64,000 bases of DNA from an uncultured Actinomycetota bacterium. GTDB taxonomy: Bacteria > Actinomycetota > Actinomycetes > JAFAQI01. The notes under the pieces were generated by a model. The model did no database searches and was not told where the DNA came from. It saw nothing but the letters and a program-made list of their open reading frames with translations. Position numbers and translations under genes: made by a program. Where the stretch lies: the NCBI GenBank assembly GCA_963770565.1, contig CAVYQE010000011.1, forward strand, positions 128,001-192,000, in the 5' to 3' direction. This document shows positions 18,931-21,951 of this stretch, one piece after another; positions within the stretch are counted from its first letter, which is position 1, and each line of letters opens with the position of its first letter.

Positions 18931-19272
18931 TCAGGCAGTCAGCGAGTCGTCGGCGGGTCGGCGGATGACGCGCTGGTCGGGCTCGGTCGCCAGTCGGGCC
19001 ATCACGCCGTACGACGCTCCCACCGCACTGAGCCGGCCGGCCGGCGAAGCGGACCGGGTGGCGTCCTCGGAGCGGAGCAGGATCAGCCCTTCGTCGGCGA
19101 GTGACTTCGCGGCGCGGCGCAGGCTCTCGACCCGGGACCGGGTCGGTGCGTCACCAGCGATGGCGATCAGCGGCACGTAAGCACCGTGCTCGCCGCGGGC
19201 GAGCGCGTCCTCCTCGAACCGAAGCAGGAACTCCAGCACCTGTAGCTGGATCCGCCCGTGTCCGCGGCTCAT
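18931..19272 (-). CDS. Hypothetical protein, possibly winged-helix-like
   Basis: 113-aa ORF. SRVESLRRAAKSLADEGLI resembles a wHTH recognition helix plus wing. Confidence 0.5.
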   Translation of the reverse strand: MSRGHGRIQLQVLEFLLRFEEDALARGEHGAYVPLIAIAGDAPTRSRVESLRRAAKSLADEGLILLRSEDATRSASPAGRLSAVGASYGVMARLATEPDQRVIRRPADDSLTA

Positions 19273-19498
19273 CGCGGTTGACCCGGCGGCCGGTCGTGCC
19301 GACTGATCGGGAGTGGGGGGCGGCGTCGCAGGGCGCGGCCGGTGCGCTCGCTCACCGGTTCGGCCCAGTCAATCCTGCGCAGTAGTGCAGGACCGCGCCA
19401 GGTTGGGGAGAAAGGCCCAAAGTGCGCTCTTCGTAGAAAAGCGCCACTCTTTCCGCCGGCATCCCACGTCCTTCGCTTGACTGGCCACCGGAGAATAC

Positions 19499-19517
19499 CT
19501 TGACTCATCGAGTCAAG
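19499..19517. promoter_or_regulatory. Perfect palindrome CTTGACTC-ATC-GAGTCAAG, candidate operator
   Basis: 8-bp arms with a 3-nt spacer in an A-rich intergenic region about 80 nt upstream of the peptide gene. An extra CTTGACT half-site lies at 19476. Confidence 0.6.
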
Positions 19518-19595
19518 TCATTGTCAACACTCGGAAAAACAGAGCCAACACCCGCAAGAAACAGACACCAACACTCAGAAATTCGGAGGGTAATC

Positions 19596-19772
19596 ATGGC
19601 CAAGGCAACCCGCATCGCGATCACGCTGCTGTCGTGCGTCTCACTGTCGATCCTCGGTACCGCCGGTGCCGCGTCGGCCCACCCCCGGCACGCCGGCCCG
19701 ACCAAGGTTGCGGTGCACGTGCACAAGACCACGCACCGCATGCACTCCAACAAAGACGACTGGTGCTGCTAA
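19596..19772 (+). CDS. 58-aa secreted peptide precursor ending KDDWCC (candidate signalling propeptide)
   Basis: RBS GGAGGG 5 nt before the ATG. Sec signal MAKATRIAITLLSCVSLSILGTAGAASA|, then a His/Lys-rich linker and DDWCC-stop. Confidence 0.75.
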   Translation: MAKATRIAITLLSCVSLSILGTAGAASAHPRHAGPTKVAVHVHKTTHRMHSNKDDWCC

Positions 19773-19797
19773 GCCCCGGTCACCGCTAGGCGCGGTC

Positions 19798-21156
19798 TCA
19801 GCCGGTGCGAGTGAACATCGCGTGGCTGACCGGCGCTTCGCTGTGCAGGCCGAAGGCCGCGGCGGCGCTGCGGTAGGCGTCCCGCGCGCCTTCGGCGTCG
19901 CCGGCCTCGTCGAACCGTGAGCCGAGCTCGAACCAGAGCGCGGCCGCGGTTCGATCGGCGCCGGCTGCAGTCAGGGCGGCGACCGCGTTGCGGTAGTGCC
20001 GGCCGGCCTCGGACTGGTCGCCGCGTTGCTGGTCGATGCTGCCCAGCAGCGACTCGACCTCCGCCTGGACGAACGGGCTCTGGCCGGCGAGTAGGCCCAG
20101 CGCCTGAGTCGCGAGCGCTTCGCTGCCGTCGAGATCGCCGGCGAGCAACTGGCTGCGGGCAAGCAGAATGTCGCAGCGGGCGATGTCGACGACGCTGCCG
20201 TCGACGTCGCCCAGGTCGCGACGCGCCTTCCGGACGTGGAGCTCGGCCTGGGCCGGGTCGGGCGGGCTCTGGCGCAGGAGGAGCTGTCCGAACTGCCGGC
20301 GCAGCCGGGCCAGGCTGCGCAGGTCGTCGGTGTCGCCGAGCAGGGTCAACGCCCGGTCGGCGAGCCGGATCGCTTCGTCGAGGTCACCTCCGCGCGATGC
20401 GAGGATGCTCGCGTTCCAGTACGCCGAGGCGCGGGCCGTCGGCGACGCGAGCTTCTCGGCCGCCACGATCGTGGCGCGACACAGCTGACGGGCGTAGGTC
20501 TCGTCGCCGCGCTCGAAGTAGGCACCCACCAGGCTGACCGCGAGCCGGATCGCGTCCTCGGTGCCGTCGAGCCCGAGCTCCTCGGTGTGGCGGAGCGCGA
20601 CCTCTCCGACATCGATGCTCCGGGACAGGTCGCCGGCCTCGCGGTAGCAGCGGCACAGCGCGATCACCGCGGGCAGCCACAGCCGCTGGCGGCGGTCGGC
20701 CACGATCTGCTCGAGCAGTTCGGCCGCCGCGTCGAGCCGGCCGAGCGCTTCGAGGCTTCGCGCGTGGATCCATTCCGCCTCGCGCCGCAACGGTCCGAGC
20801 TCGTGCGCGGAGTCGATCAGGAGCTTGCGGACTTGGACCTCGGCGTCGTCCGCCTCACCGGAGTTGAGCGCGAGCTCGGCGTAGCGCAAGGCGAGCCGGA
20901 CCTCTTCGGCGTACTGCGGTTCGACCCCGGTGACCAGGTAGTCGATGGTGGTGCCGAGTCGCTCCGCGAGCAGCTGTGCCACCCGGGGTTCGGGCCGGCG
21001 CTGGCCGGCCTCGATCCGGGACACGTACGCGCCGGAGATCTCCGAACCGGCGAGGGCCTCTTGGGTCATGCCTCGGGCCACCCGGGTCGCGCGGACGCGC
21101 TGACCCAGCTTGGCCAGGTCGACTGAAGCCAGATGTGCCTCTGGTGCGTCGTTCAT
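19798..21156 (-). CDS. XRE-family HTH plus TPR-repeat transcriptional regulator (RRNPP/NprR-like architecture)
   Basis: LGQRVRATRVARGMTQEALAG..SGAYVSRIEAGQRRP HTH, followed by about 370 aa of TPR-like helical repeats. Confidence 0.85.
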   Translation of the reverse strand: MNDAPEAHLASVDLAKLGQRVRATRVARGMTQEALAGSEISGAYVSRIEAGQRRPEPRVAQLLAERLGTTIDYLVTGVEPQYAEEVRLALRYAELALNSGEADDAEVQVRKLLIDSAHELGPLRREAEWIHARSLEALGRLDAAAELLEQIVADRRQRLWLPAVIALCRCYREAGDLSRSIDVGEVALRHTEELGLDGTEDAIRLAVSLVGAYFERGDETYARQLCRATIVAAEKLASPTARASAYWNASILASRGGDLDEAIRLADRALTLLGDTDDLRSLARLRRQFGQLLLRQSPPDPAQAELHVRKARRDLGDVDGSVVDIARCDILLARSQLLAGDLDGSEALATQALGLLAGQSPFVQAEVESLLGSIDQQRGDQSEAGRHYRNAVAALTAAGADRTAAALWFELGSRFDEAGDAEGARDAYRSAAAAFGLHSEAPVSHAMFTRTG

Positions 21157-21438: not shown

Positions 21439-21951
21439 CTAAGGGGTGTCCGGCGGGTCGGTCAGCCGCATCGACGGCCGGCCCGGCTCGCCGAACTCGT
21501 CCATGAACTCGTTGAGCACCGACCACGCCCAGGTGTCGGTGCGGCGCCAGGTCAGGCGAAGGGTCTCGATGTCCTTCCACCCACGCACGATCCGAGCGTT
21601 GTCGGGGTTGCGGTCGTCCTCCTTGATCGCCATCCAGCGGCCATCGGCGAGCCGGAACACCTTGAAGACCAGCTCGTGGTCGGAGGCTTCGGCCTCGCCG
21701 TACTGGGCCCGAAGCGCCGAGGCGACCTCGCCCAGCCGCGGCGGGATCTCCCGCTCGGCGGCGGTGAGATCGGCGATGTAGGCGTCGATCGCGCGGACGT
21801 AGCGACGGGCTGCGTCGGCCTGGACGACCGCGGACATCGAGGCGCTCGTGCTGGCATCGTGCCAGCCGGCCTCGGCAGCGATGTATTCCGCGACGACGTC
21901 CGAAGCTTGCGCCACATCGGCAGTGTCCTCCGGAATCGCTCCCGCCGACAT
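21439..21951 (-). CDS. Hypothetical protein
   Basis: 170-aa acidic ORF with protein-like composition; no family recognised. Confidence 0.55.
   Translation of the reverse strand: MSAGAIPEDTADVAQASDVVAEYIAAEAGWHDASTSASMSAVVQADAARRYVRAIDAYIADLTAAEREIPPRLGEVASALRAQYGEAEASDHELVFKVFRLADGRWMAIKEDDRNPDNARIVRGWKDIETLRLTWRRTDTWAWSVLNEFMDEFGEPGRPSMRLTDPPDTP

Follow-up and report, generated by a model that had tools for sequence, protein, structure and literature searches.

The 64,000-nucleotide stretch of DNA analysed here (positions 128,001 to 192,000 of contig CAVYQE010000011.1, from an uncultured Actinomycetota bacterium, a soil actinomycete; hereafter the window) harbors two adjacent genes that probably form an RRNPP-type cassette of a peptide signal and its receptor, with a logic similar to that of PlcR-PapR. 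One gene encodes a small propeptide of 58 amino acids ending in KDDWCC, and the other a regulator of 452 amino acids in which a helix-turn-helix (HTH) domain of the XRE type is followed by tetratricopeptide repeats (TPR). The propeptide would be exported and trimmed, the resulting fragment would be taken up and bound in a groove of the regulator, and the peptide gene would be auto-regulated. An actinobacterial quorum-sensing-like pair of this kind had been proposed in an initial annotation drawn from the sequence alone, and the proposal is now supported, on computational grounds, by a comparison across genomes, by complex prediction and by natural co-variation.

The propeptide starts with a segment carrying K3 and R6, continues with a hydrophobic core and reaches AASA just before H29. 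Cleavage after AASA, placed by the A-x-A rule, would leave a mature part of 30 amino acids with six His and the C-terminal KDDWCC. The two genes are convergent, with 25 bp between their stops (the stop codon of the regulator gene occupies 19798-19800). In the regulator, matches to the Pfam families HTH_3 (E = 1e-10, residues 22-74), HTH_31 (E = 3.2e-9), TPR_MalT, TPR_12 and TPR_2 can be found, while neither a signal peptide nor a membrane segment was seen in its sequence. The motif SAYWNAS corresponds to residues 244-250 and includes N248, and the HTH motif YVSRIE[AS]GQRRP is almost invariant across the regulator homologues. All of the features described in the initial annotation, namely the small open reading frame (ORF), its ribosome-binding site, the signal sequence, the KDDWCC end, the convergent HTH-TPR protein 25 bp away and the SAYWNAS motif, were found again on re-inspection. 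The peptide itself matches no family of Pfam or NCBIfam at E values up to 1, and three related peptides from Nocardioides gave matches at chance level only against the same collections.

The pairing of the two genes can be found well beyond the window. In a first survey, the regulator was searched in 40 related genomes and the flanks of the 16 best loci were scanned in six frames. Signal-like small ORFs ending in Cys-Cys lie beside regulators of 95% down to 33% identity, with the tails -DDWCC, -DAWCC, -GTWCC, -NHWCC, -HTWCC, -DFHCC, -VPGCC and -ACECC; they are mostly convergent and downstream of the regulator gene, some being divergent or co-directional and upstream. Two larger scans cover genomes, with one genome per species (372 relatives, of which the best 80 were analysed), and metagenome contigs, where a Nocardioides-type query gave 357 relatives and again the best 80 loci were analysed. 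An ORF was counted when it combined a Lys/Arg n-region, a hydrophobic core and a Cys-Cys end directly followed by the stop codon. The carriers among the 80 genome loci are metagenome-assembled genomes (MAGs) labelled Frankiaceae or 'Mycobacteriales' and many Nocardioides and Marmoricola, cultured type strains included.

Such an ORF, encoding 38-58 amino acids, lies at most 600 bp from the regulator gene in 67 of the 80 genome loci, convergent and just downstream in 65 of the 67, and no other ORF passing the filter was found elsewhere in these 80 loci. Among the 13 loci giving no match, one has a peptide ending in -CCL, three hold frameshifted relics and nine show nothing. The peptide is present in 55 of the 58 metagenome loci that have at least 250 nt of downstream DNA; the remaining 22 are cut by contig ends, and two of these still show it. 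In the initial annotation, small signal-bearing ORFs with a W-C-C-like tail beside regulator homologues had been named as what would support the pair, and both scans clearly show them. About 0.1 -CC ORFs would be expected by chance in the DNA near the regulators, against the 67 observed, and over both strands of the whole 4.43-Mb genome five ORFs pass the filter, namely the window ORF and four Arg/Ser-rich ones that look like off-frame junk. In RefSeq genomes of Nocardioides, the same peptides are annotated as hypothetical proteins.

Beside the pair, little else is kept. The commonest flanking gene family occurs in only 21 of the 80 genome loci, in a clustering of stop-to-stop frames of at least 90 amino acids whose clusters are inflated by off-frame ORFs, and no conserved output or neighbour gene was found beside the pair in these 80 loci. 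Since no other neighbour is kept, the conserved unit is the two genes. Judged by sequence, the cassette family spans Frankiaceae-like MAGs, Nocardioides and Marmoricola, and at least Nonomuraea; the peptides of Nonomuraea (L235, ending in -GCC) and of genome G028 (L015, ending in -ECC) are in divergent position.

Within the peptide family, the only invariant residues are C57 and C58, which are present in 69 of 69 aligned peptides, the mean column identity being 27%; it is the tail rather than the body that is under common constraint. Of the W-C-C-like tail named in the initial annotation, the terminal Cys-Cys is the conserved element, whereas Trp at the third position from the end (-3) is merely the commonest residue, found in 60 of 122 distinct pairs, and is not invariant. 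In all 124 peptides, a Lys/Arg n-region leads into some 15-20 hydrophobic core residues and then a c-region of small residues, and the segment between the core and the tail is free in length and in sequence. A lipoprotein reading of the signal was rejected, as no conserved lipobox Cys can be found (Cys residues besides the tail pair occur in only 6 of 67 peptides), and so was a Tat reading, no twin-arginine consensus being visible by eye. The six-His middle of the window peptide (19680-19751) is common to three other genomes of the same genus and is not shared by the rest of the family; it may give the peptide of this genus an added metal-binding property.

How the tail could be recognized is suggested by structure prediction. 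The AlphaFold2 model of the regulator is all-helical, with a mean predicted local distance difference test (pLDDT) score of 92.1 and a predicted template modelling score of 0.82; the HTH domain is followed by helical hairpins, with paired helices over residues 80-434. For the complex, the TPR part (residues 78-445, with an alignment of 83 rows) and the 30-residue pro-peptide (69 rows) were submitted with unpaired alignments. The complex score was 0.80 (0.80, 0.82 and 0.78 in the single runs), whereas none of three controls exceeded 0.10. The mark used for this score is reached by 58 of 80 solved complexes and by 2 of 110 mismatched pairs, counts that are only roughly valid for predictions from own alignments such as these. 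Agreement between the runs amounts to at least 56% of contacts, with a partner pLDDT of at least 43.

The confident interface is made by peptide residues 53-58 (KDDWCC) alone, lying in the TPR groove. The predicted neighbours of W56 are N248, W247, G211, V210, S208, I251, E215 and R172; those of C57 are W247, N248, V207, S208, A243, S244, A269, S281 and L285; and those of C58 are S208, S244, V207, I165, R204 and R169. The contacts of W247 and N248 have the least expected error (0.6-0.8 Å). Several of these groove residues are strongly conserved among the 83 regulators, namely A269 (83), W247 (82), R169 (80), R172 (78) and N248 (78), and C170 is nearly invariant. The Asn in a TPR helix to which the initial annotation had drawn attention is this N248; it is thus both widely kept and among the most confident predicted contacts of the tail.

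Natural variation among 122 distinct receptor-peptide pairs, which is independent of the complex model, points to the same part of the groove. Glu at position 215 accompanies Trp at -3 in 58 of 60 pairs and Tyr at -3 in 9 of 10, against 7 of 52 for all other -3 residues. Where -3 is Asp or Glu, residue 215 is His or Arg in four pairs out of four. Residue 211 is Leu, Phe or Met in all ten pairs with Gly at -3 and Ala, Gly or Ser in all 60 with Trp, and with His at -3 the change N248E can be found in four of five. Out of 434 columns, that of E215 ranks first for mutual information with -3 (1.52 bits), its own entropy being below that of the next columns. By residue type, the changes at 215, 211 and 248 are chemically complementary, combining a hydrogen-bond donor with a carboxylate, an acid with a base, or filling a cavity. 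On a tree built without the contact columns, the signal of co-evolution is suggestive. Specificity appears to rest on peptide position -3 and on one or two groove residues (215 and 211), so that pherotype switching is directly testable. Two pairs with differing tails can be present in a single MAG (L056 with ...ETWCC and L064 with ...SDWCC).

A further receptor residue stands out in the same data. R327, in an ARCD motif and adjoining C328 (window 20176-20178, minus strand), ranks first of all columns for mutual information with peptide positions -4 and -6, and second for -5. It lies outside the confident predicted interface, and may touch the peptide at residues preceding the tail.

The 196 nt preceding the peptide gene have a G+C content of 52.6%, vs 69.6% window-wide, and contain a perfect palindrome that ends 79 nt before the ATG. 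The form TTGACT-N5-AGTCAA occurs once in the 4.43-Mb genome at zero mismatches and never at one mismatch, and the palindrome block is kept in three other genomes of the genus, where the flanking DNA diverges. Upstream of the regulator gene there is a single conserved AGTCAA (GGCAA in one genome). Other clades have different inverted or direct repeats of TTGAC- or TTGCC-type words. Across 112 distinct peptide-upstream regions, TTGACA is present in 67 and CTTGAC in 64, where 9.4 and 9.8, respectively, would be expected. The enrichment of inverted repeats as such is modest, the mean best arm being 6.75 of 8 positions against 6.21 in shuffles, with a Wilcoxon p of 4e-12 that is inflated because the loci are related. 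The enriched words could instead be -35 promoter boxes; for this reason, and because of the relatedness of the loci, the palindrome is called a candidate operator only. One operator shared by the whole family was considered and rejected, as the perfect palindromes differ between clades.

The locus is present in soil metagenomes (X1, X4). A soil RNA library contains a 160-nt contig over 19524-19683, i.e., the leader and the first 88 nt of the ORF, with one mismatch, together with two further contigs over parts of the regulator gene; contigs fall on 8 of 30 bins, and the uncovered parts carry no information. The contig over the leader is a weak hint of transcription.

Taken as a signalling circuit, the cassette would work as follows. 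The 58-residue product would be exported by the Sec pathway and lose its signal peptide of 28 amino acids, after which the pro-peptide would be trimmed outside the cell to a short fragment keeping the native C-terminus x-x-x-W-C-C-COOH. The one hint of such trimming is the restriction of the confident interface to residues 53-58. The fragment would be taken up, probably by a permease of the oligopeptide (Opp) type. The genome encodes eight SBP_bac_5 (OppA-type) genes above the cut-off, which are permissive only, because such genes are also found in 11 of 14 control genomes. In the model, the tail lies in the concave TPR groove with its terminal carboxylate near R169, and the two Cys occupy a tight pocket formed by the conserved small residues A243, S244 and A269 plus W247 and N248. 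Residue -3 would be read by E215 and G211, as predicted by the model and supported by co-variation. Binding would then alter the activity of the HTH dimer at inverted repeats of the TTGAC type, and since the only perfect copy of the operator lies upstream of the peptide gene, the circuit would be auto-regulated.

Several observations weigh against this reading. The regulator can be found without the peptide gene in 9 of the 80 genome loci and in 3 of the 58 evaluable metagenome loci. There is no conserved output gene and the perfect operator lies at the peptide gene alone, so that the circuit as seen regulates only itself. The passing complex score shows likeness, not binding, and may reflect the model's memory, because solved complexes of RRNPP receptors with their peptides exist; the pLDDT of the peptide itself is low (43-46). 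In fold searches, LGN/Pins (25-26), subunits of the APC and MalT (21.9) rank as high as or above RRNPP receptors. The independent contrasts behind the co-variation are few. Trp or Tyr versus E215 gives six pairs, of which on average 4.0 go the same way, 0.1 go the opposite way and 1.9 show no change (median p of 0.125 in sign tests); Gly versus a bulky residue 211 gives four contrasts, all in the same direction (p of 0.125); and Asp or Glu versus a basic residue 215 is a single event. The soil RNA contig may stem from DNA carried over into the library. An extracellular peptide with two free thiols would also be prone to oxidation. Finally, export, cleavage, trimming, uptake, binding and the effect on DNA binding are all inferred.

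The main rival, which is unlikely, is that of a regulator with its target only. The peptide would not be a ligand at all; the exported Cys-Cys peptide would act outside the cell, by thiol or metal binding, by redox chemistry or as an antimicrobial, and the TPR domain would sense something else. A one-product regulator of this kind fits the sole perfect operator at the peptide gene and the lack of any other conserved output gene, and the mature part in the genus of the window, His-rich and with two Cys, looks like a metal binder. The His-rich stretch is, however, absent outside the genus. Furthermore, the complementary co-variation of residues 215, 211 and 248 with -3 and the top rank of E215 are left unexplained, and the complex model puts the tail in the groove with a score far above that of the best control, even if from own alignments and roughly calibrated.

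It is still less probable that the small protein stays wholly or partly inside the producing cell and binds the regulator there as an anti- or co-regulator, with no cell-to-cell signalling. Co-variation and the complex model show a fit between tail and groove only, and not an exit from the cell, which is compatible with such a partner. Yet the n-region, core and c-region kept in all 124 peptides, together with the free segment behind them, make up the pattern of a cleaved export signal plus spacer, and from a folded partner in the cytoplasm one would expect conservation of more than two residues.

Very improbable is a precursor of a ribosomally synthesized and post-translationally modified peptide (RiPP), the Cys-Cys tail of which would be modified by enzymes encoded elsewhere, with the HTH-TPR protein as regulator of the pathway. 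The invariant Cys-Cys does suggest a shared chemistry, and the regulator has weak NCBIfam matches, restricted to the TPR part, to FxSxx_TPR (30.5 bits, cut-off 300) and HaaT (24.6 bits, cut-off 1125). These matches nevertheless amount to generic TPR similarity, the N-terminus of the peptide resembles a Sec signal and not a RiPP leader, and the pair has no conserved neighbour encoding a modifying enzyme, a protease or a transporter, as the low share of even the commonest neighbour family illustrates. That the small frame is a chance ORF, a view for which its small size alone and the richness of high-GC DNA in spurious ORFs could speak, is refuted by the comparative data: the ORF recurs in both scans with an invariant -CC-stop beside regulators down to 33-36% identity, against a genome-wide background of five ORFs per 4.43 Mb, and RefSeq lists the same peptides as hypothetical proteins in Nocardioides.

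As regards kinship with known systems, the signal-receptor cassette proposed here has the architecture of RRNPP systems, and membership by descent, via PlcR, is plausible. When a profile of the 83 regulators is compared with solved structures, the best natural match is PlcR (2qfc, E = 6.8e-14), with residues 6-189 of the query aligned to residues 3-189 of PlcR as a single stretch that runs from the HTH through the linker into the first repeats; the posterior, high in the HTH, is low in the remainder. The HTH domains of ComR (E of 6e-9 to 1e-7) and those of SinR, ClgR and other XRE proteins also follow, and neither Rap nor NprR gave a detectable sequence match in this profile search. Foldseek returned the PlcR:PapR7:DNA entry 3u3w (E = 3.6e-7). 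Fold searching by Foldseek or VIA-align was nonetheless discarded as a test of RRNPP membership, generic TPR proteins ranking equal or higher.

The signal of PapR is its C-terminal heptapeptide, and the PlcR box is a palindromic operator upstream of the peptide gene which gives auto-regulation. As in PlcR-PapR, an N-terminal XRE-type HTH precedes a TPR domain, a small gene next to that of the receptor encodes a propeptide of the Sec type whose extreme C-terminus is the ligand (predicted here), and a palindromic operator stands upstream of the peptide gene with auto-regulation (a candidate here). Unlike PlcR-PapR, which belongs to Bacillota (the Bacillus cereus group), the present cassette is found in Actinomycetota; its receptor has more repeats and exceeds PlcR by about 160 residues (452 vs 293 amino acids), its genes are mostly convergent rather than co-directional, and the receptor resembles PlcR strongly in the HTH but weakly in the repeats. 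To our knowledge, an invariant Cys-Cys-COOH can be found in no described RRNPP peptide.

Other peptide systems share parts of this design. Rap-Phr of Bacillus (and the Rap of phage phi105, with its peptide) differs in that Rap proteins lack an HTH. With AimR-AimP and with Rgg-SHP or ComR-XIP, the present pair has in common a two-gene cassette, a receptor composed of an HTH and repeats, a propeptide with a C-terminal signal, and a specificity that diversifies among close relatives, as in the differing tails of L056 and L064. In the case of ComR, only the HTH matches the regulator profile, and in contrast to AimR-AimP nothing in the window pointed to a phage context. SHP and XIP peptides leave the cell independently of a Sec signal, whereas the peptides described here have a classical one. 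Within the same phylum, cell-cell signalling by the gamma-butyrolactone/ArpA system, the textbook quorum sensing of actinobacteria, also relies on a cytoplasmic receptor which doubles as DNA-binding regulator; its receptor is of the TetR type, however, while here the receptor is an HTH-TPR protein and the signal is a gene-encoded peptide.

The initial annotation had stated that systems of this kind are described from Firmicutes, in agreement with the available part of PMC10075063, where peptide systems are a feature of Firmicutes and Actinomycetota typically use small molecules. In the available parts of this source and of PMC4748050, actinobacterial signals are presented as small molecules, and a peptide-TPR system is not among them; those of PMC10075063, PMC4748050 and PMC13419125 describe no actinobacterial system of the RRNPP type. 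More generally, no description of such a system in actinobacteria, or of a signalling peptide terminated by Cys-Cys, was found in the searched literature, which covers few subscription journals and no supplements.

If the cassette is indeed a signal and its receptor, a large family would carry the RRNPP mechanism, which is treated as a speciality of Firmicutes and their phages and plasmids, into a second phylum. For actinobacteria, the signals usually taught are butyrolactones and other small molecules. A sequence rule for the signals would also follow, namely a signal peptide, a variable spacer and x-Cys-Cys-COOH beside an HTH-TPR gene, and the carriers include cultured, non-pathogenic Nocardioides, for example strains of N. 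jensenii, N. islandensis, N. agariphilus, N. soli and N. immobilis. A more speculative extension, rather doubtful at present, is that Cys-Cys acts as a chemical gate: the signal would be read in one thiol state only (reduced dithiol, vicinal disulfide, disulfide-linked dimer or metal-bound form), which would couple quorum sensing to extracellular redox conditions or metals. Recognition might then involve the near-invariant receptor residue C170, beside R169 in CRCYRE, which could form a mixed disulfide with the peptide or share a metal ion with it. Such a gate would be a mode of ligand recognition not known for any RRNPP receptor.

Table 1. Features of the peptide-regulator locus, in window coordinates.
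Feature	Position	Strand	Remarks
Upstream direct half-site copy CTTGACT	19476-19482	+	Kept in all 4 same-genus genomes (alignment of peptide-upstream regions)
Candidate operator, perfect 8-3-8 palindrome CTTGACTC-atc-GAGTCAAG	19499-19517	.	Binding by the regulator inferred
Extra GTCAA half-site directly after the palindrome	19523-19527	+	
Ribosome-binding site GGAGGG	19585-19590	+	5 nt upstream of the ATG
Small propeptide ORF, 58 amino acids	19596-19772	+	ATG at 19596, TAA at 19770-19772
Signal-peptide-like N-terminus, propeptide residues 1-28, ending AASA	19596-19679	+	From sequence; export putative
Predicted 30-residue pro-peptide after signal cleavage	19680-19769	+	His-rich middle genus-specific
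C-terminal hexapeptide KDDWCC, residues 53-58, proposed part of the ligand	19752-19769	+	Sole residues in the confident predicted interface
XRE-type HTH plus TPR regulator, 452 amino acids, proposed peptide receptor	19798-21156	-	Pfam, AlphaFold2, profile search
TPR superhelix with predicted peptide groove, residues 80-440	19837-20919	-	
W247-N248 of the AYWNAS motif	20413-20418	-	Predicted hold on peptide W56 and C57
E215, specificity residue co-varying with peptide position -3	20512-20514	-	Model contact and mutual information
R169-C170-Y171-R172 of the CRCYRExGD motif	20641-20652	-	R169 predicted by C58, R172 by W56
HTH DNA-binding domain, regulator residues 17-74	20935-21108	-	HTH_3, HTH_31

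Around the two genes of Table 1, the flanking ORFs at 18931-19272 (minus strand, 113 amino acids) and 21439-21951 (minus strand, 170 amino acids) match neither Pfam nor NCBIfam, and they are not kept beside the cassette in other clades.

Variants of the cassette can be found at several loci. In L083, L098 and L044/L006, the signal peptide and the -xCC tail are in different frames, representing either errors of MAG assembly or decaying genes. At the metagenome locus L198, two tandem peptide genes (both ending in ...ARNVWCC, with one spacer residue different) lie behind a single regulator gene. In Nocardioides sp. YIM 152315 (L085), the peptide just downstream ends in ...RWCCL, one residue past the Cys-Cys, and its regulator, alone among the 83, has Arg replaced by His at position 169, the residue predicted next to the C-terminal carboxylate; this is a single anecdote. 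The genomes G012 and G021 each have two regulator copies. The copy nearest to that of the window (59% identity; L005/L043 and L009/L046) has no nearby peptide gene and, in G021 (L009/L046), is moreover interrupted by a frameshift or stop. The second copy (L122, L123; 45-46% identity) is accompanied by a peptide of 68 amino acids with a long Thr/Gly-rich spacer and the tail ...ADHSWCC. The peptide-less copy may be an orphan receptor listening to the peptide of its paralogue.

Homologues of the regulator are also present in collections of mobile elements. The plasmid collection holds 58 records with homologues at about 35-38% identity, 52 of them from Streptomyces, where homologues lie on linear plasmids. 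In the phage collection, a single scaffold named 'UNVERIFIED: Bacteriophage sp.' (L233, MT836207.1, human faecal sample) carries a homologue of 43% identity that is truncated at the contig end and therefore uninformative; this actinobacterial-type gene in a phage-labelled record may reflect mis-binning of the contig or a genuine mobile copy. Among four inspected records (three from the plasmid collection and the phage scaffold), a -CC peptide can be found in Nonomuraea only (-GCC, with a homologue of about 36% identity). On plasmid pADI95-16a of Streptomyces sp. ADI95-16 (L232, 386514-387021), the one such locus with small neighbours, two annotated hypothetical proteins of about 70 amino acids are encoded behind a 38%-identical homologue and in its orientation. 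One of the two has a signal-like N-terminus, and neither ends in Cys-Cys.

A second pair of an HTH-TPR regulator and a peptide, the latter of an unrelated-looking type, can be found in another actinobacterial genus, g18 (L016/L207 at G029:C12, about 419759-421018, and L208-L231). Its regulator is 25% identical to that of the window and is present in 25 of 25 genomes of the genus and in none of 16 from other families (E of at most 1e-20). Beside the regulator, 24 of the 25 loci have a signal-peptide ORF of 70-95 amino acids, the 25th being cut by a contig end. The peptide has no Cys and contains two to four tandem copies of [IVT]G[NI]WPDP[MAV], the last of which stands at the very C-terminus, so that by its sequence this repeat peptide (two to four times GNWPDPM) looks like a multi-copy pheromone precursor. 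The g18 pair suggests that the phenomenon is broader than the Cys-Cys family.

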